Shown one piece after another: positions 1 through 62,190 of a stretch of 64,000 nt of DNA; positions within the stretch are counted from its first letter, which is position 1, and every line of letters begins with the position of its first letter. The notes below the pieces were generated by a model, which saw only the letters and a program-made list of their open reading frames with translations, did not search any database and had not been told where the DNA came from. The DNA is from an uncultured Clostridia bacterium (GTDB taxonomy: Bacteria; Bacillota; Clostridia; TANB77; CAG-508): positions 4,570 to 68,569 of the forward strand of contig CALXJT010000001.1 in NCBI GenBank assembly GCA_944388695.1, read 5' to 3'. The position numbers were made by a program, and so were the translations under genes.

Positions 1-690
1 ATTGCATCTGATGGTATATTGCCAATTGTTAAGAGTTCTGACCATGGAATGGATTTTTATATTCTTAAAAAGGATAATGTTGGACTTCGGATGGCAGTAA
101 GAATGAAAAATCAGTTATTTAGTGATGATGTAACTATTGCATTTTTTGAAAATAGGTATTCTATTCCTTATGATTCTAATCCGTATGAAAAACAAAATGT
201 AACTGAAAGAATCTTTGTCGATGAAATTACAGAATCTTTAGCAGAACTGGATAAAGCAATGGGAGAAGAAATGGATATGAAAGATTTAGAAACAATCCTT
301 TTCGGAGAGAGAATTGTTAAGAAACCAGTTGAGTTACCTAAAGCTTCGGCTTCAGATAAAGAATCGGTAAATAAGTCGGCAGAAAAACTTAATGATGAGT
401 CAGTAGGTATGCCAAGGTACAAATCATTTGGACAACCAGGTGACAAACCAGCAGGTATGCCAAAGACCAAATCATTTGGAGAACCAGATAGCAGACCAGT
501 GGGTATGCCGAAGTTTAAATCATTTGATGAACAACATAGCAAACCACATGATGTGCTAGAGCAGCAATCAATTGATGATTTTACCAAAGCCCCAAATAAG
601 ATAGTATTAAACCAAACTACAAGTTCAGTAAAAAATGGAGAAGTAGTAAAAAAATCTTCACATGAAGATAAAAATAACAGTTCGAAATAG
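1..690 (+). CDS. Hypothetical protein, probably 5'-partial at the window edge. C-terminal region has three tandem 16-aa GMP(R/K)xKSFG(Q/E)P repeats. First gene of the vWA/kinase operon.
   Basis: Open frame from nt 1 with no in-window stop. The track ORF 19..690 starts at TTG. Stop TAG is at 688-690. The 48-nt periodic repeat VGMPRYKSFGQPGDKPA/GMPKTKSFGEPDSRPV/GMPKFKSFDEQHSKP is visible in the translation. Confidence 0.5.
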   Translation: MASDGILPIVKSSDHGMDFYILKKDNVGLRMAVRMKNQLFSDDVTIAFFENRYSIPYDSNPYEKQNVTERIFVDEITESLAELDKAMGEEMDMKDLETILFGERIVKKPVELPKASASDKESVNKSAEKLNDESVGMPRYKSFGQPGDKPAGMPKTKSFGEPDSRPVGMPKFKSFDEQHSKPHDVLEQQSIDDFTKAPNKIVLNQTTSSVKNGEVVKKSSHEDKNNSSK

Positions 691-707
691 TGTGGGAGGT
701 AAATAAT

Positions 708-1487
708 ATGAAGAGAATTTTTGATATTTTTAAGTTTGATAAAAATCCTGATGATTCTTCAAAAGATGATAAACCTTCTACAAAAAGAACTAGAAGTGTT
801 AAGGAAGATAAGCCGAATCCGGCCATATCTACAGATTTAACTGAATCAAGTTTTACTGAACCAAATTTTACTGAACCAAGTTTTGATGAATTAAATAAGG
901 ATGATGCTATGAAGAATAAAAAATCATATTGGGGAGGAGATAGGACTCGTCCGAGTTATATATTTCCAAGGGTTACAAAGAAAAAACTCACAATTGTTTT
1001 GCTTGAGAACACAAAAAAATCTATAGAGGCAAAAGGTATTATATTAAAAATTATTCACAGGCTTGTATCAACAGACCTTATCTGTGTTATTACCTATGGT
1101 GATAATGTTAAGGTAAACAAGGTAGAAAAAGTGAGTACATTTAGTGATAAAAAATTACTAGATGAGAATAATGTAACTGAAAATGCTTGTCTGTATGATG
1201 CATTAAAAATCCTAAAAAAAGTAGTTATTATTGCAGATAAGAAAGAGCTAGATGAGGATTTTGGTATTGATAAGTATAAGATTGACTCTATTGATGTAAT
1301 AGGTATAGGGTCTGGCTTGGATGTGGGTTCTAAAGTGAAGGTGGAAGAAGCAATAGAGTGCTTTGAAGATGTTCTTTCAAAAAAAGATGTCGATACAAAA
1401 TATTTTTGCTTTTCAGAGGATACTTTTAAAGAAGTGGCTTCATTAGGTTTTCGTTCAATAGGGGCATTTCCAAGTAAAAAGGTATAG
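708..1487 (+). CDS. vWA-like domain protein with degenerate MIDAS.
   Basis: ATG at 708 is preceded by GGGAGG 8 nt upstream; the track ORF starts at 690. Alternating hydrophobic beta-strand / helix pattern (LTIVLLENTKKS..., LICVITYGDNVKV, IDVIGIGSGLDVG) resembles vWA, but the DxSxS metal site is replaced by ENTKKS. Confidence 0.45.
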   Translation: MKRIFDIFKFDKNPDDSSKDDKPSTKRTRSVKEDKPNPAISTDLTESSFTEPNFTEPSFDELNKDDAMKNKKSYWGGDRTRPSYIFPRVTKKKLTIVLLENTKKSIEAKGIILKIIHRLVSTDLICVITYGDNVKVNKVEKVSTFSDKKLLDENNVTENACLYDALKILKKVVIIADKKELDEDFGIDKYKIDSIDVIGIGSGLDVGSKVKVEEAIECFEDVLSKKDVDTKYFCFSEDTFKEVASLGFRSIGAFPSKKV

Positions 1488-1494
1488 GATTGGA

Positions 1495-3021
1495 GTGATA
1501 AGATTGACCTTGATAGAGAGATTAATTAATTTCTTGAAAAAAATTTGCTTTTTTTCTTATTTTAATAATGCTTCGGAAACTGAAGAAAACGAAGAAAATA
1601 TTGATGGAAAAGAAGCAGAAGGGGCAGATGTAGAGAGTTTAGAAAAAGCAGTAGAAGATTTTAATAATACTGTTATAGAGAATAAGATTAAAGTATTTAA
1701 AATGACCTTGACTAGACTCTATATGTTAGACCAAAAAATTACCGTTTTCAAGGAAAGTTTTCCAGATTCATATCTATTTTTTGAAGGTCAAATCAAAGAG
1801 TTAGAAAAAAGTTATAAGGACAGTTTGATAGCTGCTAAACAGGATTTAACTTTTGAGATTGATCCTGAAAAAGATGGAGAAAAGCTTGCCAAGATTTTAA
1901 TACTTGAAAATGATGTGGAAGCTTTTATTGAAAAAGAAGTAAAATTCGATATTATTGTCAAAAAACTTCAACGATTAATTGTAAAACTAAATATTTTATA
2001 TAATGTTTCAGTAACACACATAAAGTCAAATGAGAGAGAAAAAGCAATAACTCAAACTATGCGGGCAATTTGCGTAGGAGACAGAATTATTCAAGATTTT
2101 AAATCTTGTGAATATTTACTGAAAGATATACAGCTTAAAGATGAAATCGTTGGATTGGTATCATATTTAAGTTATCAAATTTTTAAGCTTTTGCTTAGGA
2201 ATTCTGATATAACTCCAATTGAAGCTCTGAAAAAGATAGTATTTTTGACTGAATTTGATGGTCTTGAATATAATGCTTTATTCAAAGCATTTCTGGAGGA
2301 TGAATTAAAGGAACTTTCTAACCTAACCCAGCAGATTCAAAATGAAGAATGTCGGAATATTTTGAAGAATGAATATAGAGAATTTTATATTCAGCTTACA
2401 TGTTCTAAAGATGGTAACCAGATTTTAATTAATACTGAATTCTGGGCTAATATCTTCGATTTTGAATCAAAGTTATTCAGTTTACTAAAGGAGAGTAGTA
2501 TCGAGAAAGACAAGATTAAAATTAAGCTTATTTCTAGAATGAATATTCACGTAACTGAAAAAGATGTTCTAGTTTCGCCAAAAACTAATACGTATTTGAC
2601 TTTAATAAGTATTTTTTCTAAAACTCAAGATCAAAGAATTACATTGGTTTTAAAACTTCTCAAAAATATTTCTGACGATGTAACTTATAAGGAAATTTAT
2701 TTTCTGCTTTTGTTATTTGATGTTTTAGATATTGTTAAAGGAGTTCCCAATGAATTGATTGATGATTTAAAAAAATATTTAGAGAAGTATCCATATAGTA
2801 GTAGTGCTTTGGAACGAAAAAAAGAACAGGTTTTATACTCTTCAAATAGTGAATATATTTATGTTTTTACTTTAGAGGAGTATGAAGAAAAGTTGGTTGA
2901 AGAGCTGGATTATCTTAAAATTGATTTCAAAAATGTCGATAATAAGATATTTATGAATGAAATTTATTTCAGCGGATTAACTGCAGTAATGAAGAGTTTA
3001 AAAACAGTAACAGCTATTTAG
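1495..3021 (+). CDS. Hypothetical, largely alpha-helical / coiled-coil protein of the vWA/kinase operon.
   Basis: 508-aa ORF 8 nt after the previous stop, with no recognisable catalytic motif. The start is uncertain: GTG at 1495 or TTG at 1501 after GGAG. Confidence 0.5.
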   Translation: MIRLTLIERLINFLKKICFFSYFNNASETEENEENIDGKEAEGADVESLEKAVEDFNNTVIENKIKVFKMTLTRLYMLDQKITVFKESFPDSYLFFEGQIKELEKSYKDSLIAAKQDLTFEIDPEKDGEKLAKILILENDVEAFIEKEVKFDIIVKKLQRLIVKLNILYNVSVTHIKSNEREKAITQTMRAICVGDRIIQDFKSCEYLLKDIQLKDEIVGLVSYLSYQIFKLLLRNSDITPIEALKKIVFLTEFDGLEYNALFKAFLEDELKELSNLTQQIQNEECRNILKNEYREFYIQLTCSKDGNQILINTEFWANIFDFESKLFSLLKESSIEKDKIKIKLISRMNIHVTEKDVLVSPKTNTYLTLISIFSKTQDQRITLVLKLLKNISDDVTYKEIYFLLLLFDVLDIVKGVPNELIDDLKKYLEKYPYSSSALERKKEQVLYSSNSEYIYVFTLEEYEEKLVEELDYLKIDFKNVDNKIFMNEIYFSGLTAVMKSLKTVTAI

Positions 3022-3040
3022 TTAAATGGAGGAAAAAATT

Positions 3041-3775
3041 ATGTCAAAAGAATTTGATTTTCTGTCACTTGCAAATGAGTATGATTTTTCGTCAGATAGT
3101 ATTAATGTGTTTTTGATGGTATTGGATAGTTCTGGATCGATGGAAGATGATACTTTTAATGTTCGGAAAGGACTTGAAGCTTACAAAAAAGATTTTGAGA
3201 ATTTTCATGAGGCAAATTCGATTGTTGTATCTGCATCAAGTTTTGATTCACATTATTATCCAAAACCATTTGTAAAGGTGAGAAAGATGTCAACTAGTTA
3301 TTCTACTGGAGGAAGAACAGCATTGTGTTATTCCATTGTGCAAGGTGCTGAACAACTCAAAACTTATATCGAAGAGGTATCTAGGAGAACAGGCGTTATT
3401 CCAAGAGCTACGTTTATCCTTTTCTCTGATGGTGAGCCTTGTGATGATCCTGTAGAACCAAGCAAAGCTAAAGAGGCAATTGAGGAATTGAATTATGCAG
3501 GAATTACGACTGTATTTATAGCATTTGGAGCAGCAATTTCTTCAGAATTTGGTAAGATTATGGGATTTCAGTCTACAAGGGATGTAAATGACCGTAATTC
3601 ATTAGTTGACTTCATGGTAGAAGAACTCTCAAAATCTTGTAAAGAGCAGTCACAAAGCATGAAAGCTCTCGGAGCAGATTTCTTTAGCCATGCAACTGAT
3701 AAAGAAAGTTCAGCAAATTACTCGAATACTACAAAACAGGCTCTTGAAGATGATGATTGGATTGATGAAATTTAA
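3041..3775 (+). CDS. von Willebrand factor A (vWA) domain protein, TerY-like, with canonical MIDAS.
   Basis: ATG at 3041 follows GGAGG; the track ORF starts at 3026. MIDAS motif FLMVLDSSGSMEDD, followed by typical vWA strands (RATFILFSDGEP, TTVFIAFGAA). Confidence 0.75.
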   Translation: MSKEFDFLSLANEYDFSSDSINVFLMVLDSSGSMEDDTFNVRKGLEAYKKDFENFHEANSIVVSASSFDSHYYPKPFVKVRKMSTSYSTGGRTALCYSIVQGAEQLKTYIEEVSRRTGVIPRATFILFSDGEPCDDPVEPSKAKEAIEELNYAGITTVFIAFGAAISSEFGKIMGFQSTRDVNDRNSLVDFMVEELSKSCKEQSQSMKALGADFFSHATDKESSANYSNTTKQALEDDDWIDEI

Positions 3776-3859
3776 TTGATTCATATTCAAGATTGTAACT
3801 AGAAATTTAACACCCTGGGGAACTGATAGTTCCCCAGGATATGGAAGAGGTATAATTAT

Positions 3860-6800
3860 ATGCTTAATAAATTATATTCATCACTTTATTATTATTGGGT
3901 AAAAAAACATTATAAATTAATGTTTTCTCACGATGGAGAAGAAATATATTATGCCAATAAAAAACTAGTTGTTATACAGGAAAACAGAATACTTGGAGAA
4001 AAAATTTATGATATTGTTTCTTCTTTAAGTGATTCTAATACAGTGCTAGAAATTAAAAACATGTCTTTTAGTTTTGTTAATTATTTAGCTGTGGATGGGG
4101 TTATTACTTGTTTTTCTATATCCGTTCCAGATGAGTTTGATGTGCAAGAATTTGCGATAATGGAAAAACTAGAAAAAGTAATTCTCTTTGTCAGCGAAAT
4201 GAATAAACACGGTTATTTTTTAGATGAATCAAAGTTTGAGTTTAAACAGAGTTATTCTATTTCAGAAATTCTTTCATTTCTTACTACTGATTCTAAAGCT
4301 GAAAGTAAGACACTTGGAATCTTGATTAGATATTGTCATTATTATTTATCTGGAAAAAATGATTTTGAAGAATTTTATTTTGAGCTTGACAGTCAAAGAT
4401 ATTTTGACATGCATGAAATGCCATATTCTATTGAGATTATACAGATGTGTTATAAATATTATTCGACAGGTGAAGTTCCAGAAGATATATATGAGGTTCT
4501 TACTTATAATTCAGGCAAACTTTATAAGTACGATTTATGTGTCAAGGATGCAGAATGTAAGAATTGGAATCCAGATGAAGAAAATGATGAATATGCGATT
4601 TATGGTAACATAAAGATATTCAAGAAGATGCCAGAGAATTTTAAAAAATTTATACTTTCTGATTATTATGATGGGAGTATATGTTTTCTATGTGATGATA
4701 CAGATAATTTAAGAGTTATTAATCTTGATGGTGAGGTTATTGGATATGAAACAAGTTTTGACTCTAGTCGTATGCCCATTTTAGATGTAGAAATCTTTCA
4801 CCAAAAAATGATATTTAAGTTTATAGAAAAACTGATATCTTTTGTATTAAGAACAAAGAAAATGAGAGATTTTGATAACAATTTATCTAAAGTGGAACTC
4901 GATAAAATTATTACTGTTTCAGGATTTCTTTATGATTTCAAGTTTAAATCTTTTGACAAGTTATTCTATTTCTTTGGAATGAGTGAAGATGAAATTTTAA
5001 ATCAGCTTGCAGAAATTTTTTGTAGAATGTATAAAAAATTTATTAATAAGCTCTATGGAAAAGTAAATGATAGAAATGAATTACTAGAAAAGCGTGAGAT
5101 TAGATATTTGAGTCCAATGCTTGCGAATGAGCTTGTAAAGTTCTATTTTGAGGAGGATACAAATTTTAAGCGAGTATTTGATGAATTGCAATTATTCAAT
5201 TCTAGTTATAGAGAATTTGATTATACTGCTTTATTGTTTTATGATGGGCGATTTGCATACAATCCATTTACAATTCCATTTCATTTTTACTATGAAGTAG
5301 AACAAAAATATGGAATAAAACTTGAAGCTCATATGAAGAAAGAGTTGCCAGATGGACGAAATATTGTGATGTTTTCTCATCCTAAATCAATCAAAGACTT
5401 TAAGAATAAGCATGTGCATATATGTGAAATGATAAATAGATTAATAGGAAATATTGAGAGTGAACATCTGAAGTTTGTAGAGGTTTCTGAAATTATCTAT
5501 TCCGAGGAATATGATGATAGTGGAGTTTATAGTTTTATAGGTTATATAACAACTCCTGTTAAAGGTGAGATACTGACTTTAGAGGACCAATTAATACTTA
5601 ACAATAAAGAGTTAATGTATGTGTTTGGATACTATTATGCTAATTTCTCTGAATATATTTTTCCTGAAGAGTATGTTCGGATGGATAGTGATTTTGTATT
5701 CTACATTGATGTGTTAGCTGATGATTTTGAATTGAAGCGCACTTATTGTTCTTCTAAAAGAGAATTATTGAAGAAAGAAATTAATATCCTTTTAGATAAT
5801 GAATATAATTCAAATGCGTTTGTTGGGCTAAATTTGGATTTATTTTCACTTCATAATTACTTTAAAGATAGTATCGGATTTCCAGGTATGTCTCTTTCAG
5901 AATACTTTATTGAACTTGCAGATTCTCTCAATCATTATTGCCTGAAACATGGTATTTACTATGCTGGTAAAGCTTGTCATATCTGTTCAGAAACAGTATA
6001 TTATTTGGCTCGTAAATCCATAAAGAAGGATATTTTAATCTTTGAGGATGATATTGCTAGACATTATGAAATAAGTCCTGACTATAACCTTAAATTTTAT
6101 AAACCAGAATCAGTTAATATGATTGATATGGAAGAAAGAGTGGATAAACTAATAAAAATAAGTTTAAGTCCTAATTATGACTTATTTGAATATGGACAGG
6201 ATTGTTTTATACCAGTAAAGAAAGCATATGATAACGATGAGAAGTTTGTTGGCTACTTATATAAACATGTGAGCTTTGCTGATGAATCAGATGACTTGTG
6301 TGTTGACTTAAAAGACCTAGAGAAAATGAAAAATTTACCTAGGTTAAAAGCTTTAATTAGACTCTTGAAACAAATTAAATCATTACTAGAAAAAGATATC
6401 TTTTTTGCTCAAAATCCTTATGGCACAGTTTTTTTAAATAGAAGTTGTAAAAAACAAGTACAAATATTAAATATTGAATTTATTGATACAGAAGGGAATA
6501 AATCTGATGTTATAAATTGGACTTGTGCATATGTATTTGATGTTATAAAATCAGATAAAACTCTTATGTTAGATAGTAAATTTAAACAACTTCTAGATGA
6601 TATTCAGGAGGATTCTGAAGGTGATATGAGTAATATTGATTCAATTCTTTTGAAGACACTTGAAGAAAAGGCTGAAAGGATGACAAAATACTGTGCTACA
6701 CATCAGTTATATTATGATAAAGAATATCTATTCTGTCCCAAATGTTCAGAAGAGGTTGATGTAAAAAATTTGAAGATTATGGAGATAAGCAAAAAAGACA

Positions 6801-8554
6801 TTACTTCTCGTAAAAAAATTGGTGACGGTGGTGAAGCTGATATTTATGAATATGGGAATGGTGATGTGGCAAAGGTATTTAAAGAAAACGGTAATATTAA
6901 TTACAGTTTGAAGAGCATGATTATAGCTCGGATTATGAAGAAAGCTGAAACATTAAAAAATACTGGTAATTCTGCTCAATATCAGTACATTATTCCAAAA
7001 GTAATCTTGGTAGATAATAATCAAATGTATGGTTATGTGATGAAAAGAGTCGGTGGATTTCCTTTATCTGTTTTAAAAGATAAGCAGTTTGTAAAAGAAC
7101 AGGGCTTTTCTAAAAGAGATGTTTTTGATATACTCATAACAGTAGGAAAAGGCATCGAAGGATTGCATAAGGAGAATATTTTTATTGGCGATTTAAATGG
7201 TAGAAATATCCTTTTTAACAAATCAAAAACAGTTTACTTTTTAGATTTTGATGGAATGGGAGTAGATGAGTTTTCGCCAGAATTTTGTACAGATACTTAT
7301 ATTGACCCAGTTTCTAAAAAGAAGAGTATGATTACAGAGAAAGATGATTGGTATTCATTTGCGGTTCAAGCTTTCTATTATTTGACATATACACATCCTT
7401 TTAATGGGATTTATATGGAAGATGGGAGAGCATTGGAGATTCCGGAAAAAATGGAAAAAAGAATTTCTCTTCTTGGTAATCATGGAATTGATATTCCTAA
7501 AATTGCGGAACCATGGGATTGGATGAGTGAGGAACTTAAAAATACCTTTTATTCTATTTTTGAAAAAGAACTTAGGGTTAGTATTGTTCCATATCTTATT
7601 AATCAATATAATTGTATATATAAAGGTGAAGGAGATGCTCAAGTATCTGATGAAAAATGGGTCAGAATTAATCCAAAGTTTATAACATTGAGTTTTAATC
7701 CTTTTAGTGTTGAAGATGAAACATATGCTATAAACTCAAACGTTGCACTTTGTATAGAGAAAAAGTATGCTATTGTTTTAACAAGTAATCACCAATATAT
7801 CCTTAAAGATTCATGCTTTTTTAATGAACCAGAATCAATTCAGGATGTAGTAATTACAGAAGATGAAAATTTTGCTTTTGTAATTTATTGGAGAATTTTG
7901 TTTATAATTGACTTGAAAAAAGATCATTGTATTCAATTTATACTTTTAAAAGGTACTAATAATGCAATTGTGAATGGAAATTCTATATTTTATGTAGATA
8001 TCCATAAAAACAAGCCTATTATCTCTCAAGTTTCTGTGAACAGTGGAGGTGAATTAGAAGAAAATCGGTTTAAATATACTGATAAATCACTGGCTCCGAA
8101 ATACTTTGGTGTAGCATTTAGTAGAAAATTTGTTATAGTTCAGCCATCTTCTAAGTATAAAGATGTTATATATTGTAACAGTGAGAAATTCTGCGATATT
8201 GATTGTAAGCATAGTAATACTAAATACAATGTTATTTACGATGATTTTAGTAAAACATGGCTTGTAATTAATGAAGAAGGATATGTTGTTATAATTAAAC
8301 AAGATGGCACCTTTGACAAGTTTAAGCTAAATGATGAAATCGAAGTATTAGTAAAGAATATTCGGTATGTAAAAGGAAATATTTATATCCCAAATGATGG
8401 ATGTTTGTGGATAATAAGTGTAAAAGACCAGTTTAAATGTAAGAAGATGGAATGTCATAAATTTATGACTTCCGCTTCTAGGATTTGTAAGGTGGACCGA
8501 AATGGTTTTACTGTAGTAACAGATGGAAAACTCTATGTTATTCGTAGAGGATAA
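3860..8554 (+). CDS. Giant 1,564-aa multidomain protein with two CxxC...CxxC Zn-ribbon-like motifs, a eukaryotic-type Ser/Thr protein kinase-like domain and a beta-rich C-terminal domain.
   Basis: RBS GGAAGAGG lies before ATG 3860. Kinase signatures are seen directly: KKIGDGGEADIYEY (G-loop), VAKVFK (beta3 Lys), HKENIFIGDLNGRNILF (catalytic loop with D...N), LDFDGMG (DFG-like), KDDWYSFAVQAFYY (subdomain IX DxWSxG-like). Cys pairs CLKHG...CHIC and CATHQ...CPKC. Confidence 0.7.
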   Translation: MLNKLYSSLYYYWVKKHYKLMFSHDGEEIYYANKKLVVIQENRILGEKIYDIVSSLSDSNTVLEIKNMSFSFVNYLAVDGVITCFSISVPDEFDVQEFAIMEKLEKVILFVSEMNKHGYFLDESKFEFKQSYSISEILSFLTTDSKAESKTLGILIRYCHYYLSGKNDFEEFYFELDSQRYFDMHEMPYSIEIIQMCYKYYSTGEVPEDIYEVLTYNSGKLYKYDLCVKDAECKNWNPDEENDEYAIYGNIKIFKKMPENFKKFILSDYYDGSICFLCDDTDNLRVINLDGEVIGYETSFDSSRMPILDVEIFHQKMIFKFIEKLISFVLRTKKMRDFDNNLSKVELDKIITVSGFLYDFKFKSFDKLFYFFGMSEDEILNQLAEIFCRMYKKFINKLYGKVNDRNELLEKREIRYLSPMLANELVKFYFEEDTNFKRVFDELQLFNSSYREFDYTALLFYDGRFAYNPFTIPFHFYYEVEQKYGIKLEAHMKKELPDGRNIVMFSHPKSIKDFKNKHVHICEMINRLIGNIESEHLKFVEVSEIIYSEEYDDSGVYSFIGYITTPVKGEILTLEDQLILNNKELMYVFGYYYANFSEYIFPEEYVRMDSDFVFYIDVLADDFELKRTYCSSKRELLKKEINILLDNEYNSNAFVGLNLDLFSLHNYFKDSIGFPGMSLSEYFIELADSLNHYCLKHGIYYAGKACHICSETVYYLARKSIKKDILIFEDDIARHYEISPDYNLKFYKPESVNMIDMEERVDKLIKISLSPNYDLFEYGQDCFIPVKKAYDNDEKFVGYLYKHVSFADESDDLCVDLKDLEKMKNLPRLKALIRLLKQIKSLLEKDIFFAQNPYGTVFLNRSCKKQVQILNIEFIDTEGNKSDVINWTCAYVFDVIKSDKTLMLDSKFKQLLDDIQEDSEGDMSNIDSILLKTLEEKAERMTKYCATHQLYYDKEYLFCPKCSEEVDVKNLKIMEISKKDITSRKKIGDGGEADIYEYGNGDVAKVFKENGNINYSLKSMIIARIMKKAETLKNTGNSAQYQYIIPKVILVDNNQMYGYVMKRVGGFPLSVLKDKQFVKEQGFSKRDVFDILITVGKGIEGLHKENIFIGDLNGRNILFNKSKTVYFLDFDGMGVDEFSPEFCTDTYIDPVSKKKSMITEKDDWYSFAVQAFYYLTYTHPFNGIYMEDGRALEIPEKMEKRISLLGNHGIDIPKIAEPWDWMSEELKNTFYSIFEKELRVSIVPYLINQYNCIYKGEGDAQVSDEKWVRINPKFITLSFNPFSVEDETYAINSNVALCIEKKYAIVLTSNHQYILKDSCFFNEPESIQDVVITEDENFAFVIYWRILFIIDLKKDHCIQFILLKGTNNAIVNGNSIFYVDIHKNKPIISQVSVNSGGELEENRFKYTDKSLAPKYFGVAFSRKFVIVQPSSKYKDVIYCNSEKFCDIDCKHSNTKYNVIYDDFSKTWLVINEEGYVVIIKQDGTFDKFKLNDEIEVLVKNIRYVKGNIYIPNDGCLWIISVKDQFKCKKMECHKFMTSASRICKVDRNGFTVVTDGKLYVIRRG

Positions 8555-8562
8555 AGATTATA

Positions 8563-8610
8563 GAGAATGCTCAAGAATATTAATATCTTCTTGAGCATTC
8601 TCTTAATTTT
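8563..8610 (+). terminator. Rho-independent terminator of the vWA/kinase operon.
   Basis: Perfect inverted repeat GAGAATGCTCAAGAA (8563-8577) / TTCTTGAGCATTCTC (8588-8602) followed by TTAATTTTTAAT. Confidence 0.8.
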
Positions 8611-9070
8611 TAATATATTTGGGAAATAATATATTATTGATTAACTATGTTAATGGATGGAAAATGAATGGTATTATAAAAAAATTTAATAAAAAAATAA
8701 AAAAAATACTTGACCGACAGTTACTACCGACTATTATAATTATAATGTTAAATATAAAATGCAGTGCTAATTGTAGTACAAGCAATTAGCACAAACATCC
8801 CCTTTTAACTAGAAAGGAATTATTCTATAATACATTTTATAGAATAATTCCTCTTAAAAAATAAGGAAGGTAAATTATGAAAAAGAAAATTGTTTTATTT
8901 ATTGTTTTAATATTAATAAGATTAATGCAAGCATAGTAGGTATAAGTTAAATATCTATTATGTTTTTTTATTAAAAATGCAAATATTGTAAATTATGTTA
9001 ATATGTGATATAATATTACTTGTAACAAATAATTTTTATTTTTTAAGGCAATGCCTAGAAGGAGGATTTT

Positions 9071-10777
9071 ATGAAACAAAAAACAAAAGGTGTAGGACCT
9101 CGGATTGTAGCAATAATTTTAACGATTATTATAGCTCTTTTTTTAAATTGGCTACATTTACCACCATGGAACATTCGGTCAGTAAGTTTTTGGTGGTACT
9201 GGGTATTTGTATGTGTTGTTGCTCCAATGACTTTTTCAATTGTAGATACTATTGCAGGTTATGGTGCTACTACAATTATTACTAAAATTTTGAGAATTAT
9301 AGCTATTGCTATGGTAATAATTATAGTTATTCTAACTTTTGCATCATCAAAAATCTTTAATGCTGCTAGATATTCTAATCTAATTGATGTAGAAGAGGGT
9401 AATTTCCAAGAAGATATTCAGAGTATTTCAACGGTTGAAGAAGCCAAAAATTTTCCGCTTCTTGATGTTGAAACTGCACAAAAATTAGGAAATAGATCAT
9501 TGAGCCAAATAAAGAAGGTTTCTCAATTTGAAGTTAATGATGAATATAATCTTATTAGCTATAATGGAAAACAATATAGATTATCTCCATTAGAATATTC
9601 TTCTTTTGTTAAGGCTATGAATAATGAGAGTATACCTGGTTATGTGCTTGTTGATTCTGAAACTCAAGAAAGTCAATTAGTAGATTTAGAGAATGAAATC
9701 AAATATGCACCTAGTGATATTTTTTCACAAGACTTAAATAGACATTTGAGAAGTAAATATCCTAGTTATATATTTGACAAATTTCAATTTGATATTGATG
9801 ATTCAGGAGAACCTTATTATATTGCACCAGTATTAAAACCTACAATCGGACTCTTTGGAGGTCAAAAAGTAGAATCTTTTGTTATAGTAAATGCCAATTC
9901 AGGCGAATGTGAAGAATATTTACCTGAAGATTTACCAGAATGGGTAGACCATGCATATTCGTTAGATTATTTAATGAATTTAGCAGAAAATTATTACCAG
10001 TATAAAGATGGCTTTTTTAATTCTTTATTTTCAAAAACTAATGTCAAGAAGCTTTCATATAGTTATGAAGGTGAAAATGTAAATGAAGATGACCAAGAAG
10101 ATGAAAATAAATTTGTTGGTTATAATTCAATCTTAACAGAAGATGGTGTACAGTTTTTTACTTGTGTAGTTTCGGCTAGTAATGATGAATCAGCGCTAGG
10201 TTTTATTTTAGCAAACTCTAGAACTGGAAAAATAACTTATTATGAATGTGCAGGTGCTGAAGAAAGTACGGCTCAATTACAAGCAGAAAGCTTATACCAG
10301 AATTATGGTTATAAGTCTAGTTATCCATTAATGGTAAATGTTGATGGAGTGCCAACATATATCATATCATTGAAAGATAAGTCTAAAATAAATAAGGCTT
10401 ATGTTATGATTAATGTTGAAAATTACACTATATCAGCTTCTGGAGAAACATTGGAAGATGCTCTTATTGAATATAGAGAGAAGGTTTTTGGTGAAGAAGC
10501 GTTAACTCCAGATGATTTGACATCAGAAACACCAGAAGAAATAGAAGCTGAAATCTTTACTACTACTGGAACTATAACACAATTGTATCAGGCTACACAA
10601 GATGGTACGACTCAATTCTTCTTTATTTTAGATGGTGATGAAAATCTATATATTTCGCCAATTACTAATAATAGTAGGCAGGTGCAAATGTCAGTTGGAA
10701 GTAATGTTTCAATTGAATATTATAATTCACCTAATGAAGAATTAGTAGGTATTGTTTCAAAAATCAAAATCAATTAA
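9071..10777 (+). CDS. Hypothetical membrane protein with N-terminal TM helices and a large extracytoplasmic domain.
   Basis: RBS GGAGG before ATG 9071. Hydrophobic N-terminus (IVAIILTIIIALF..., WWYWVFVCVVAP, IAIAMVIIIVILTF), then a 450-aa soluble region with no motif I recognise. Confidence 0.6.
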   Translation: MKQKTKGVGPRIVAIILTIIIALFLNWLHLPPWNIRSVSFWWYWVFVCVVAPMTFSIVDTIAGYGATTIITKILRIIAIAMVIIIVILTFASSKIFNAARYSNLIDVEEGNFQEDIQSISTVEEAKNFPLLDVETAQKLGNRSLSQIKKVSQFEVNDEYNLISYNGKQYRLSPLEYSSFVKAMNNESIPGYVLVDSETQESQLVDLENEIKYAPSDIFSQDLNRHLRSKYPSYIFDKFQFDIDDSGEPYYIAPVLKPTIGLFGGQKVESFVIVNANSGECEEYLPEDLPEWVDHAYSLDYLMNLAENYYQYKDGFFNSLFSKTNVKKLSYSYEGENVNEDDQEDENKFVGYNSILTEDGVQFFTCVVSASNDESALGFILANSRTGKITYYECAGAEESTAQLQAESLYQNYGYKSSYPLMVNVDGVPTYIISLKDKSKINKAYVMINVENYTISASGETLEDALIEYREKVFGEEALTPDDLTSETPEEIEAEIFTTTGTITQLYQATQDGTTQFFFILDGDENLYISPITNNSRQVQMSVGSNVSIEYYNSPNEELVGIVSKIKIN

Positions 10778-10940
10778 AGCAAAAGCTCTGTGGTATTTTC
10801 CACAGAGCTTCTGCTTTATAATATTTTTTATATTAAATAATGTATGAATTGAATAAATATGTTATAATAGATTCAGAAGTTAAATAACTATGTAAAAATC
10901 ATACAAAAATTAATTAATGTTTTTGAAAGGAAGAATGATT

Positions 10941-11300
10941 ATGAGCTTGTTAGGAAATATTTTATGGTTTATCTTTGGAGGTTTTTTTAGTGGACTTTCT
11001 TGGATATTATCTGGAGTGATTTGGTGTATAACTATTGTTGGAATACCTTATGGAAAACAATGTTTTAAGTTTGCATCAATGTCATTTGCTCCATTTGGAA
11101 AAGAGATTGAATATGGTGGTGGAGTTCCATCATTACTCGCAAATGTGATATGGATTATCTTTTTTGGTATTCCAATGGCTTTGGAGAATTTGCTTTTTGC
11201 CTGTTTATGGTGCATAACTATAGTAGGAATACCATTTGGATTACAATTTTTCAAAATTGCTAAATTATCTTTAGCTCCATTTGGAGCAAGGATTGTTTGA
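10941..11300 (+). CDS. YccF-like inner membrane protein (DUF307), internally duplicated.
   Basis: Two repeated halves GNILWFIFGG...CITIVGIPYG...FAPFGKEI and ANVIWIIFFG...CITIVGIPFG...LAPFGARI. RBS AAAGGAAG is 7 nt before ATG 10941; the track ORF starts at 10917. Confidence 0.7.
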   Translation: MSLLGNILWFIFGGFFSGLSWILSGVIWCITIVGIPYGKQCFKFASMSFAPFGKEIEYGGGVPSLLANVIWIIFFGIPMALENLLFACLWCITIVGIPFGLQFFKIAKLSLAPFGARIV

Positions 11301-14897: not shown

Positions 14898-15995
14898 ATG
14901 GCAAATATATTTGATTATATACAATGGAGAGGAGATTTAAGCATATCAAAAGATGAATTTAATAAAATAGACAATCTAATTTTATCAAGATTCTCATATT
15001 TTCCATTTGATGAAATTATAAAAGAAAATGAGGTTGTGACAATTAGAGAATTAAGTGAAAGATTTAATAAAAAAGATAAAAGTAAAATGCCAATATTATG
15101 GGAAGATGATTTAAGTTTATTTCCTGTAATGGGAGCGTCTAAAAGATTTGGAGAGATGAAAGCAACTAGATATGTAAATAAAATAAATGTGGAACAAGAA
15201 AAACAATTTTCAGCTATAACTATCATAATGCCAGATGATACAATATATATATCATATAGAGGAACAGACGATACAGTAGTAGGATGGAAAGAAGATTTAA
15301 ATATGACATTTAAAATTCATATTCCATCACAAATAGATTCAGTAAAGTATTTAGAACAAATAGCAAAAGAGTATCCAAATAAAATAAGAGTTGGGGGACA
15401 TTCAAAAGGTGGAAATCTTGCAGTATATGCCACAACATTTGCAAATGAAAATATTAAAAGCAGAATAATTAATATTTATAATAATGATGGACCAGGTTTT
15501 AATGATGAAATAATTAAAACTAAAGAATATAAAGAGATGATAAAAAAAGTTGAAACATATATACCACAAGATTCTGTATTTGGAAGATTACTAAATTATG
15601 CAGATAAATATACAGTAGTAAAAAGCATACAAAAGGGTATTATGCAACATGATTTATATAGTTGGCAATTATTAGGTAAAGAATTTGTGTCTCTAAAAGA
15701 GGTTACTGATGGAAGCAAGTTTATAGATAAATCTATTAAATATTGGCTTGAACAGATAGATATGAATACAAGAGAGCAGGTAATAGATATTATATTTCAA
15801 GTTATAAATACAACAAAAGTAGATACACTATCAGAACTAAAAAATCATTGGTTTTCAAATGCCAAAATAATTTTAAACTCTTATAAACAGGTTGATAGTG
15901 AAAATAAAAAAATGGTTATGGAAACATTATCGGCTTTATTTAAAATAGTAAAGGATAATTTTTTGGAAGAACATCTTACTTTTAAGAGTTACTAG
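14898..15995 (+). CDS. Mbeg1-like (DUF2974) alpha/beta-hydrolase, lipase-like protein.
   Basis: GxSxG nucleophile elbow VGGHSKGGNLAVYA. N-terminal DYIQWRGDLSISKDEFNKIDNLILSRFSY is typical of this family. Confidence 0.65.
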   Translation: MANIFDYIQWRGDLSISKDEFNKIDNLILSRFSYFPFDEIIKENEVVTIRELSERFNKKDKSKMPILWEDDLSLFPVMGASKRFGEMKATRYVNKINVEQEKQFSAITIIMPDDTIYISYRGTDDTVVGWKEDLNMTFKIHIPSQIDSVKYLEQIAKEYPNKIRVGGHSKGGNLAVYATTFANENIKSRIINIYNNDGPGFNDEIIKTKEYKEMIKKVETYIPQDSVFGRLLNYADKYTVVKSIQKGIMQHDLYSWQLLGKEFVSLKEVTDGSKFIDKSIKYWLEQIDMNTREQVIDIIFQVINTTKVDTLSELKNHWFSNAKIILNSYKQVDSENKKMVMETLSALFKIVKDNFLEEHLTFKSY

Positions 15996-59961: not shown

Positions 59962-62190
59962 TTAAAATTTTTTATAACATATATTTAAATCAACTTTTCC
60001 TGATATTCCATTTATTCTTCCTTCACTACTATATTGCCAAATCGCATATTCTCTATCATATCCTGGTCCTAATGAAATATCTCTATATCTTGCAATCCAT
60101 GTATCAAATTCTGATAATTCTGACATATTTAATTTGTTATTTGCCCAATTTAAGTTTGTGTAAATTATTGGTGTGTAACCATAGTTTTGAATTGTTTGAC
60201 AGAATAATTCTGCTAAATATGTACGTGTTTCATTATCAAGATTTATTGTTCTTGGAATATCTCCTGGAGCTACTTTTGCAGCTTCAATATCTAGTGCTAC
60301 CGGATATTCTATATTGTATGCTCTTATTCTTTCGTAAACCCAATTTGCTTCTTCTATTGCTTCTTCTGGTGTTATTGCTTGTGTTACAAAATAAATTCCT
60401 ACTGGTATTCCTACTCTTTGAGCTTCTTCTATATTTCTTCTAAATTGAGAATCTTCTCTAAAGTTTCCTGCTTGTCCATATCCTCTGTATCCTATTCTTA
60501 TATATGCAAAGTCTATTCCAGAACTTTTTACGCCGTTCCAATCTATATTTCCATTAAATTGGCTTACATCTATACCTCTATATTCTCTTTTATATTTTGG
60601 TACTAAACGTATTCTTATTGCTTCTATTCTTCTGCTCTGACCAATAGTTCCTGCTGTTTCTCCATCAATATACCAATTTGACCAACCAATATTTTGCATA
60701 TGTACTTGGTATTCAACTGTATATTCATCCAAATTCTCTAATTTTATTTGAATTGCCTCTAATCTTAAGCTTTTCCCCTCTGTTCCTGCTACTTCTCCAT
60801 TTTCTTTCCAATTTTGCCATCCTGTACCTTGTATATGTGCTTTATATAATACTTTTGCATTTGAAGGTGCTCCAATTAAGTTAATTTTTAGTGCTTCTAG
60901 TCTTAATGACCTTCCTTCTGTTCCTGTTACTTCTCCATCATAAGAATCTTTTTGCCAGTCTAGACTTTGAAGATGTGCATTATATTCTATATGAAGTTTT
61001 CTATCAATATTTATTGTTAATATATATTCTCTTATATGATTGCCTTTTTCATCAGCTATAAACAGGTGAATATCTTTTTTACCATCTTTAAATTTCGATG
61101 CATCTATTGTAAATTCAAACCCTGGTTTTGGATTTTCATCTATTGTCCCATATCCTCTTATTTCATCTATTACATCTTGTCTTGCACTATAGCTTACGTC
61201 AATATTCTCTATCTTTTTATTGTCTATATATGCCTCAATTTTTGTATTGTAAACATTTGACATCTTCCATCCAGATATTGTTATTTTTTCAGGGCTATAT
61301 ACTGTAGAATTAAATTCTGGAGAATCTACATGTATTAGTCCTACTTTTTCTTTTGGTACTATCTTTATTTCTATAGCCTCTACTCTTAATTTTTGTCCTT
61401 CTGTTCCTGCTATTTCTCCATCTTGCTTCCATTCTTGCCATCCTAGATTTTGTATATGTACTCTATATTTGATAGAATAATCATTACTTTCTTTTAATTT
61501 TATTTTTATTGCCTCTAATCTTAAACTTTGTCCTTCAGTTCCTGCTACTTCCCCATTCTGCTTCCATTCTTGCCATCCTAAATTTTGTATATGTGCTTGA
61601 TATTCTATATTAAGATTTTTTAAATTTTCACCTAACTCAATTGTTATTGCTTCTAATCTTAAGCTTTTTCCAGTTGTCCCTGATGTTTTTCCATCATATC
61701 TTGTTTCTTGCCACCCATCTCCTTGAATATGTGCTTTATATGAGATAAGATTATTTGTATTACTTTTTTCTACTTTTTGATTTGTTTTATTTGTATTATT
61801 TTTATCGTTATCTTTTATTTCTTGGTTTTCTTCTACGTCATTATCTTCTAATATTTCATTAGTTGTAGAATTGTTATTGCTTGAATTGGTAGTTTTATTG
61901 GATTCATCTGTGTTTATATTGTTGATGTTATTTGAGTCTGTAATTTGATTTGAATCAATTTGATTTTCTTTTTCGTCTGTTTTATTTTCTGAACTATTAT
62001 TGACAGTATTTGATTCTTTATTTTCTTCTTTTTCTTCTGTTGACGTTTCCTCTGTTAGATTACCTGTTGTCACATTTTCTTTTTTGTTTTCATTAATGTT
62101 ATTGGTTGCATATATTACTGTATTAAAAACATTTATAAATAAAATTGATATTAATAAAATAGGTACTATTCTTGATTTTATTTTTTTCAT
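59962..62190 (-). CDS. Secreted cell-wall hydrolase with signal peptide, low-complexity linker, six ChW (clostridial hydrophobic W) repeats and a C-terminal GH25 muramidase domain.
   Basis: Repeats Y(K/Q/R)(A/V)H(I/L/M)Q..GWQ (six copies). GH25 start GIDVSQFNGNIDWNGVKSSGIDFAYIRIGYRGY. N-terminal IVPILLISILFINVF signal. Confidence 0.8.
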   Translation of the reverse strand: MKKIKSRIVPILLISILFINVFNTVIYATNNINENKKENVTTGNLTEETSTEEKEENKESNTVNNSSENKTDEKENQIDSNQITDSNNINNINTDESNKTTNSSNNNSTTNEILEDNDVEENQEIKDNDKNNTNKTNQKVEKSNTNNLISYKAHIQGDGWQETRYDGKTSGTTGKSLRLEAITIELGENLKNLNIEYQAHIQNLGWQEWKQNGEVAGTEGQSLRLEAIKIKLKESNDYSIKYRVHIQNLGWQEWKQDGEIAGTEGQKLRVEAIEIKIVPKEKVGLIHVDSPEFNSTVYSPEKITISGWKMSNVYNTKIEAYIDNKKIENIDVSYSARQDVIDEIRGYGTIDENPKPGFEFTIDASKFKDGKKDIHLFIADEKGNHIREYILTINIDRKLHIEYNAHLQSLDWQKDSYDGEVTGTEGRSLRLEALKINLIGAPSNAKVLYKAHIQGTGWQNWKENGEVAGTEGKSLRLEAIQIKLENLDEYTVEYQVHMQNIGWSNWYIDGETAGTIGQSRRIEAIRIRLVPKYKREYRGIDVSQFNGNIDWNGVKSSGIDFAYIRIGYRGYGQAGNFREDSQFRRNIEEAQRVGIPVGIYFVTQAITPEEAIEEANWVYERIRAYNIEYPVALDIEAAKVAPGDIPRTINLDNETRTYLAELFCQTIQNYGYTPIIYTNLNWANNKLNMSELSEFDTWIARYRDISLGPGYDREYAIWQYSSEGRINGISGKVDLNICYKKF

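Follow-up and report, generated by a model that had tools for sequence, protein, structure and literature searches.

In a 64,000-nucleotide (nt) stretch of DNA from an uncultured Clostridia bacterium (contig CALXJT010000001.1, positions 4,570 to 68,569, forward strand; hereafter the window), we have identified an operon encoding a PP2C phosphatase, a paralogue of the vWA fold without a metal-ion-dependent adhesion site (MIDAS), a helical protein of about 500 amino acids (aa), a vWA protein with MIDAS and a giant Ser/Thr kinase; this unit lies beside a gene for TelA. The locus probably constitutes a cytoplasmic switch operating by reversible phosphorylation, of the TerY-P type, with two family-specific genes added and a genomic coupling to TelA, a reading that we hold with fair confidence. 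In two papers that both cite Anantharaman et al. 2012 (PMC11090510, PMC4978471), the TerY-P triad consists of a TerY-like vWA protein, a PP2C and a fusion of Ser/Thr kinase with Zn ribbon, and is predicted to form a metal-sensing phosphorylation switch tied to Ter/TelA stress systems and DNA-processing modules. An earlier note on this DNA (the original prediction) had remarked that the pairing of vWA and kinase recalls TerY-P, and the gene content of the triad is indeed complete once the PP2C is included. With PP2C in gene 1 and TelA upstream, the locus holds all three defining genes of the triad, so that the accompanying statement that the set could not be matched to a described system has to be withdrawn.

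All five genes lie on the plus strand, with open reading frames ending at 690, 1487, 3021, 3775 and 8554. The starts at 708, 1495, 3041 and 3860 are matched by independent gene calls in contigs encoding identical proteins. Coordinates and gaps of the predicted five-gene operon are thus confirmed, and its gene order is conserved in relatives. The features are as follows.

1–690, plus strand: 3′ part of gene 1, encoding the last ~50 residues of the PP2C domain (motifs IASDG and DDVTIAF) and a lineage-specific low-complexity tail.
401–546, plus strand: tandem repeat in gene 1, 48 nt in 3 copies, encoding the (V/A)GMPK-KSFG-P repeat of the phosphatase tail.
708–1487, plus strand: gene 2 (259 aa), a variable disordered N-terminus followed by a MIDAS-less vWA-fold paralogue of gene 4.
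1495–3021, plus strand: gene 3 (508 aa), its product all-alpha and composed of long bundles of helices; the family is restricted to this operon type.
3041–3775, plus strand: gene 4 (244 aa), a stand-alone vWA protein with intact MIDAS and a conserved Ser-rich acidic C-terminal tail.
3813–3839, plus strand: GC-rich intercistronic hairpin between genes 4 and 5, with no U-run after it.
3860–4573, plus strand: gene 5, aa 1–238, an alpha/beta domain (aa 1–120) and a helical domain (aa 134–235) in the AlphaFold2 model.
4574–5893, plus strand: gene 5, aa 239–678, two probable degenerate kinase-like modules (aa 239–470 and 471–678).
5894–6679, plus strand: gene 5, aa 679–940, Zn ribbon 1 (C694, H697, C706, C709) and a pseudokinase.
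6680–7624, plus strand: gene 5, aa 941–1255, Zn ribbon 2 (C945, H948, C959, C962) and a Hanks-type Ser/Thr kinase domain, predicted to be active.
7625–8554, plus strand: gene 5, aa 1256–1564 and stop, a beta-strand-rich C-terminal domain, possibly a beta-propeller.
8556–8608, plus strand: intrinsic terminator of the operon, a hairpin followed by UAAUUUUUAAU.

Applied to the window proteins alone, Pfam, NCBIfam and PADLOC reported just VWA and Pkinase, and Rfam gave no match over the whole window. The upstream genes were revealed by L002, an exactly matching metagenomic contig with identical proteins, from which full-length gene 1 and its upstream neighbours were taken. No membrane segments were found in any of the six locus proteins.

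The frame of gene 1 is open from base 1 of the window, with no stop codon up to the supposed start, and the gene runs off the left edge. Its true start is located 528 nt before the window, which contains the last 229 of 405 residues. The N-terminal half of the full-length protein (405 aa, L002:3480-4697) is a PP2C phosphatase: PF13672 (PP2C_2) matches with E 3.7e-6 and 27.1 bits against a gathering cut-off of 24, and the same family was called in L006-L010 and L038-L042. The metal-binding residues NNQD19, D32-G-C-S, G-D118-G-Y, S/T-D180-G and D218-D-x-T (D218/219) are invariant in 23 orthologues. The original prediction had found no PP2C phosphatase because the window edge cuts gene 1; the N-terminal half beyond that edge is an intact PP2C domain. 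It had also described gene 1 as a repeat protein. The repeats at 401–546 are real (three copies of 48 nt; period 48, 3.0 copies and 79-80% matches in Tandem Repeats Finder); what had been taken for a complete protein is the 3′ part of the PP2C gene. The long repeat-bearing tail occurs in close relatives only among the 23 aligned orthologues, and the 48-nt repeat is missing from most of them. Both this repeat and another one at 836–884, in the N-terminus of gene 2, are in frame and lie in variable, lineage-specific low-complexity regions. Directly upstream of the PP2C gene, and outside the window, is the TelA gene (L002:2117-3319), which matches PF05816 with E 1.6e-27 over profile positions 1-331 of 332.

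Gene 4 encodes a canonical vWA protein, as had been proposed from its DSSGSM motif: Pfam VWA matches with E 5.3e-6, and the MIDAS residues D29, S31, S33, T93 and D130 are invariant in the 23 orthologues and retained in distant loci. Its C-terminal tail (…KSCKEQSQSMK…EDDDWIDEI) carries the invariant residues S199, Q203, S204, S216, S224 and W240, and this motif persists in the most distant loci. A profile search with gene 4 recovered unnamed orthologues only and no relatives outside this set, and NCBIfam gave no match. The PADLOC model for TerY matched neither the window protein nor three of its orthologues; one distant orthologue scored E 0.022.

For gene 2, searches of Pfam (with 22 orthologues), PDB profiles and PADLOC returned no match. 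Its relationship to gene 4 was seen by profile comparison with hhalign, weakly at first (E 0.009) and, after the alignments had been enlarged, with 92.3% probability and E 5.4e-7 over 155 columns in register. The MIDAS residues are replaced (L-E-N-T for D-x-S-x-S, Cys for Thr and G-I-G for S-D-G), therefore the original description of a vWA-like protein with destroyed MIDAS was right. The repeat at 836–884 consists of 3.3 copies of 15 nt, and other long peptide repeats stand at this place in L008, L014 and L030.

The 508-aa product of gene 3 was correctly predicted to be helical, the AlphaFold2 model being all-helical with a predicted local distance difference test score (pLDDT) of 81.7. No informative fold match was obtained. 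An exhaustive profile search of 1.84 billion representatives found only 97 related proteins, and searches of plasmid, phage and IMG/VR collections found none. A relationship to TelA was considered and rejected (hhalign E 0.16).

Gene 5 was anticipated to be a giant multidomain protein with Zn-ribbon-like Cys pairs and a domain of the eukaryotic protein kinase (ePK) type, and this is well supported. Pfam Pkinase matches aa 1001–1228 with E 2.1e-9, and PDB sequence matches of the kinase include RSK2 (2e-6) and Staphylococcus aureus Stk1 (5e-4). Across 38 sequences, the kinase residues G990, E992, K1005 (in VAKVFK), D1111, N1116 and D1131 are invariant, as are the two C-x2-H...C-x2-C ribbons. The segment aa 679–940 is an internal duplicate of the unit formed by Zn ribbon and kinase (hhalign 97.4%, E 9e-12). 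It has kept K745, the beta3 lysine, and has Asn852 and Asn871 at the positions of the catalytic and DFG Asp; it is therefore a pseudokinase. The two preceding segments are probably further pseudokinase modules, as suggested by hhalign matches of aa 239–470 to aa 679–940 (E 2.1e-4) and of aa 471–678 to aa 941–1255 (E 5.9e-4), and by an order of strands and helices in the AlphaFold2 model that is compatible with the N-lobe and C-lobe of a kinase. The model, of aa 1–940, has a pLDDT of 83.1 and contains a kinase fold; Pfam reported no match in this region for 11 orthologues. The C-terminal 309 aa are rich in beta-strands and possibly form a beta-propeller, their sole PDB profile matches being BamB propellers at non-significant E-values of 0.07-0.4.

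This architecture invites another interpretation, in which gene 5 would encode a bacterial tandem-kinase receptor of 1,564 aa, part of a new cytoplasmic surveillance complex of uncultured gut Clostridia directed at stress or phage. Three pseudokinase modules, Zn-ribbon-linked or degenerate, and the propeller-like domain would serve as decoy or sensor surfaces gating the one active kinase, in complex with the gene 3 family, unseen until now, and the pair of vWA proteins. If true, such a complex would be mechanistically distinct from the described TerY-P and convergent with JAK and the tandem-kinase immune receptors of plants. The JAK family and the plant tandem kinase proteins are eukaryotic and have only the kinase fold in common with gene 5, where a Zn ribbon precedes each unit. 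We regard this interpretation as doubtful.

The operon ends at a strong terminator, as originally predicted. A perfect hairpin of at least 16 bp with a U-rich run after it occupies 8556–8608 (free energy -25.8 kcal/mol, z -6.5, with 0 of 200 shuffled sequences as stable); owing to its loop of more than 8 nt, it escaped a simple terminator scan. At the other end, all 19 spacers between TelA and PP2C contain a strong hairpin with U-run, the terminator of TelA, directly followed by a near-consensus sigma-A promoter; in L002 (spacer L002:3319-3480, with equivalents in L006-L037) the promoter reads TTGACT, 17 nt, TGATATAAT. Thus, TelA is a separate transcript and the genes from PP2C to kinase form a five-gene operon. 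The spacer TTACATAAAAT is conserved even among loci with ~35% protein identity, so it may be an operator. In 21 of 24 loci, genes 4 and 5 are separated by a GC-rich hairpin of 8-16 bp without U-run, at the same position and with differing sequences. The copy at 3813–3839 is probably an element of mRNA-end formation, stability or attenuation that keeps the kinase lower than the four upstream products.

The distribution of the system is narrow. Only 15 cluster representatives of the giant kinase, of 1,540-1,667 aa, are present in a database of 5.8 billion proteins. A scan of one genome per species across 185,579 species returned 27 loci, all of them in metagenome-assembled genomes (MAGs) of uncultured Clostridia/Firmicutes with isolate names that refer to human, mouse, rabbit and ruminant guts. 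The closest kinases in this collection (L011, L022) are 53% identical, whereas raw assemblies of metagenomes contain proteins of 97% identity; the collection seems to lack the species of the window itself.

All 22 loci with sufficient upstream DNA show one and the same gene order (PP2C, gene 2, gene 3, gene 4, kinase), and in 18 of them TelA directly precedes it. Among the relatives of gene 3, the four most distant ones that we examined lie in loci with a PP2C, a protein of ~300-390 aa and one of ~440-510 aa in the same order, followed, where the contig continues, by a ~230-245-aa protein and a kinase of ~1,420-1,480 aa. TelA is upstream in three of these four (L038, L039 and L041, not L040). 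The similarity ranks of the six locus proteins are correlated across loci (Spearman rho 0.48-0.80), so the six proteins diverge together. Co-occurrence of genes 1 to 5 in relatives is therefore strict, the opposite of the scattered contexts that the original prediction had named as evidence against itself. Interaction among the operon proteins is a prediction, and the genes might in principle be adjacent without working together. This is highly improbable given a strict gene order kept down to ~30% protein identity, short gaps or overlapping genes, a single promoter and a single terminator, and given that gene 3 was never seen outside this arrangement in any locus examined.

The flanks vary by locus and include genes for RF1, Rho, FtsH, YabP/YabQ, YqfD, YbeY, Era, RecO, GerA, LepA, MnmA and a P-type ATPase, with DivIC and BofC as further frequent neighbours. 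In two loci the place of TelA is occupied by other genes: SecA and a fragment of a HaeIII restriction endonuclease in L018 (L018:5573-6022), and a 653-aa protein with a weak DnaB_C match in L024 (L024:4109-6070). Genes in the rest of the window encode Rho, PBP1, PepF, ABC transporters and a P-type ATPase. The original prediction had called the organisation defence-island-like. In each locus inspected, a varying set of housekeeping or sporulation genes flanks the operon, and gene 3 has no relatives in plasmid, phage or IMG/VR collections; therefore the organisation is not defence-island-like.

These neighbourhoods bear on two further explanations. The operon might be a lineage-specific developmental regulator, e.g., of sporulation, germination or the cell envelope, in spore-forming gut Clostridia, with TelA as a mere syntenic neighbour. 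The restriction of all 27 genome loci to MAGs of uncultured Clostridia/Firmicutes from animal guts agrees with this idea, as do the frequent neighbours YabP, YabQ, DivIC, YqfD, GerA and BofC, a strong and constitutive-looking sigma-A promoter and an inheritance that appears stable and vertical. However, the sporulation genes nearby change by locus, without being conserved together with the operon, and TelA is still adjacent in L038, L039 and L041, the most distant loci, which argues for a functional link as opposed to chance synteny. We consider a developmental role improbable.

The second explanation is an anti-phage defence of the abortive-infection type, in which the tandem-kinase protein would sense a phage component and the kinase, released from control by PP2C and vWA, would mass-phosphorylate host or phage proteins, comparable to the TerY-P defence of Gao et al. 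2020 or to single-kinase defences (PD-T4-6, Stk2-like). TerY-P-like triads do protect against T7-like phages (PMC7699616, PMC11090510). Moreover, the kinase domain of gene 5 matches the PADLOC models PD-T4-6 (1.1e-10), MkoA (1e-7) and mad6 (1e-6) and, weakly, NCBIfam MAD6, the position of the cluster varies among genomes, and L018 carries its restriction-enzyme fragment in the place of TelA. Yet the PADLOC matches are limited to the generic kinase core, that of PD-T4-6 spanning aa 984–1183 of 1,564 only, whereas vWA, PP2C and gene 3 have no match to a defence model. Housekeeping and sporulation flanks, the origin of all 27 genome loci from uncultured Clostridia/Firmicutes MAGs together with co-diverging proteins, a pattern that looks vertical, and the empty searches for gene 3 in plasmid, phage and IMG/VR collections also stand against this explanation, and the operon encodes no nuclease, pore or NADase effector. 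A defence function is possible, if unlikely, and the anti-phage framing of the original prediction finds no support in the genomic context or in a system-level match of PADLOC.

Among described systems, the TerY-P triad is the nearest. Common to both are a stand-alone MIDAS vWA protein, a PP2C and a Hanks kinase with Zn ribbon in one conserved neighbourhood, the link to the Ter/TelA stress response and a predicted phosphorylation switch. The present operon differs by two extra invariant genes, for the MIDAS-less vWA paralogue and the 500-aa helical protein, and by the size of its kinase, which at ~1,550 aa comprises a duplicate of Zn ribbon and pseudokinase, a C-terminus rich in beta-strands and, probably, a further two pseudokinase modules. 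It has no DNA-processing, McrBC or secretion genes nearby, and the PADLOC model does not identify its gene 4 as an orthologue of TerY. The PADLOC models of the TerY-P system matched none of PP2C, vWA and kinase, the last matching other kinase models only. The anti-phage TerY-P of Gao et al. 2020 shares the three enzymatic or binding activities, but its kinase has a C-terminal OB fold (PMC11090510); the genomic context here is housekeeping.

Three other systems resemble the locus in part. In the Arn network (ArnA/ArnB-ArnC/ArnD-PP2A) of Sulfolobus acidocaldarius, the best experimental model of a vWA phospho-switch, the vWA protein ArnB is phosphorylated by the kinase ArnC, upon which its oligomeric state changes, and the phosphatase PP2A acts on the complex (PMC7472852). 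The network thus has a vWA protein, a Hanks kinase and a regulating phosphatase. It differs in being archaeal, in its FHA reader ArnA, in using PP2A and not PP2C, and in that no single operon unites its genes with a giant kinase; for the five operon proteins and TelA, Pfam reported no FHA family. An actinobacterial system found near GAP1-N2 GTPases (Kaur et al. 2020, PMC7159879) features an active kinase fused to both a Zn ribbon and a domain rich in beta-strands, and genes for PP2C and a stand-alone vWA protein adjoin it. The Clostridia locus, in contrast, belongs to another phylum, has no GTPase partner and possesses extra pseudokinase modules and a TelA neighbour. Finally, the operon DRA0331-0334 of Deinococcus radiodurans (bioRxiv 10.64898/2026.01.23.701218) encodes vWA, Ser/Thr protein kinase and PP2C, but contains an FHA protein and a KI-FHA-PP2C fusion and is devoid of a second vWA, the helical protein and the giant kinase. 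Taken together, the operon is an uncharacterised enlarged variant of the TerY-P switch and no new category of system.

As a TerY-P-type switch, the locus could work in the following way. The giant kinase protein would be both sensor and writer, held off by its N-terminal domains, its one proven and two probable pseudokinase modules, two Zn ribbons and beta-rich C-terminus until a cytoplasmic signal binds. The active kinase would then phosphorylate the vWA proteins, most likely in the acidic, Ser-rich tail of gene 4, in the disordered N-terminus of gene 2 or in both. Phosphorylation may alter a MIDAS-metal-dependent assembly of the two vWA proteins with the helical scaffold of gene 3, and this assembly may act on or with TelA. 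The PP2C would reset the switch, and the conserved hairpin before gene 5 probably holds the kinase sub-stoichiometric. TelA in Listeria plays a part in the tolerance of nisin, cell-wall antibiotics and tellurite and is regulated by LiaR (PMC11765107). From this biology and from the stable chromosomal context of the operon, we favour chemical or cell-envelope stress over phage infection as the trigger.

Several points weigh against the reading as a TelA-coupled TerY-P switch. Its substrate, signal and output are putative, and no effector domain is present in the operon proteins. TelA is separately transcribed and is not beside the operon in 4 of 22 loci, nor in L040, and may be a neighbour rather than a partner; it is also the only component of its kind, as no TerB, TerC or TerD Pfam families were found among the listed flank genes or the scanned genes of the window. 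The Zn ribbons precede the kinase folds, whereas they are C-terminal in the described kinases (PMC11090510). Gene 4 falls below the TerY model of PADLOC, which also gave no match of any kind for the PP2C and vWA proteins. The definition of the TerY-P family used here is moreover that of the two citing papers and not of Anantharaman et al. 2012 itself.

Downstream of the operon terminator we noted a second perfect hairpin of 16 bp (8815–8852, free energy -22.6, z -4.5). It is followed by a ribosome-binding site and a 19-codon open reading frame (8877–8936) for the hydrophobic peptide MKKKIVLFIVLILIRLMQA, which may be a type-I-toxin-like or leader peptide. The next gene (9071–10777) encodes a 568-aa membrane protein without a Pfam family. 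It adjoins the operon elsewhere only in the near-identical contig L001, so it lies outside the conserved unit; a YccF-family inner-membrane protein is encoded at 10917–11300. Two genes unrelated to the operon code for an Mbeg1-like protein (14898–15995, plus strand) and a GH25 muramidase with six ChW repeats (59962–62190, minus strand).

Modules of the TerY-P type occur widely, as does TelA, and both have been associated with tolerance of stress or resistance to phages; the phospho-switch model of TerY-P is a prediction. The locus described here represents a clean, self-contained version of such a module: five soluble, strictly co-inherited proteins that include a vWA protein whose tail is a likely phospho-acceptor, an inactive paralogue of it and a kinase that carries internal duplicates of itself as regulatory parts. 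The locus also adds two protein families beyond current domain databases, one being gene 3 and the other the N-terminal kinase modules; interest lies mainly in the arrangement of pseudokinases in tandem and in the orphan family of gene 3. The operon thereby offers a tractable system for finding out what a vWA phospho-switch senses and controls.

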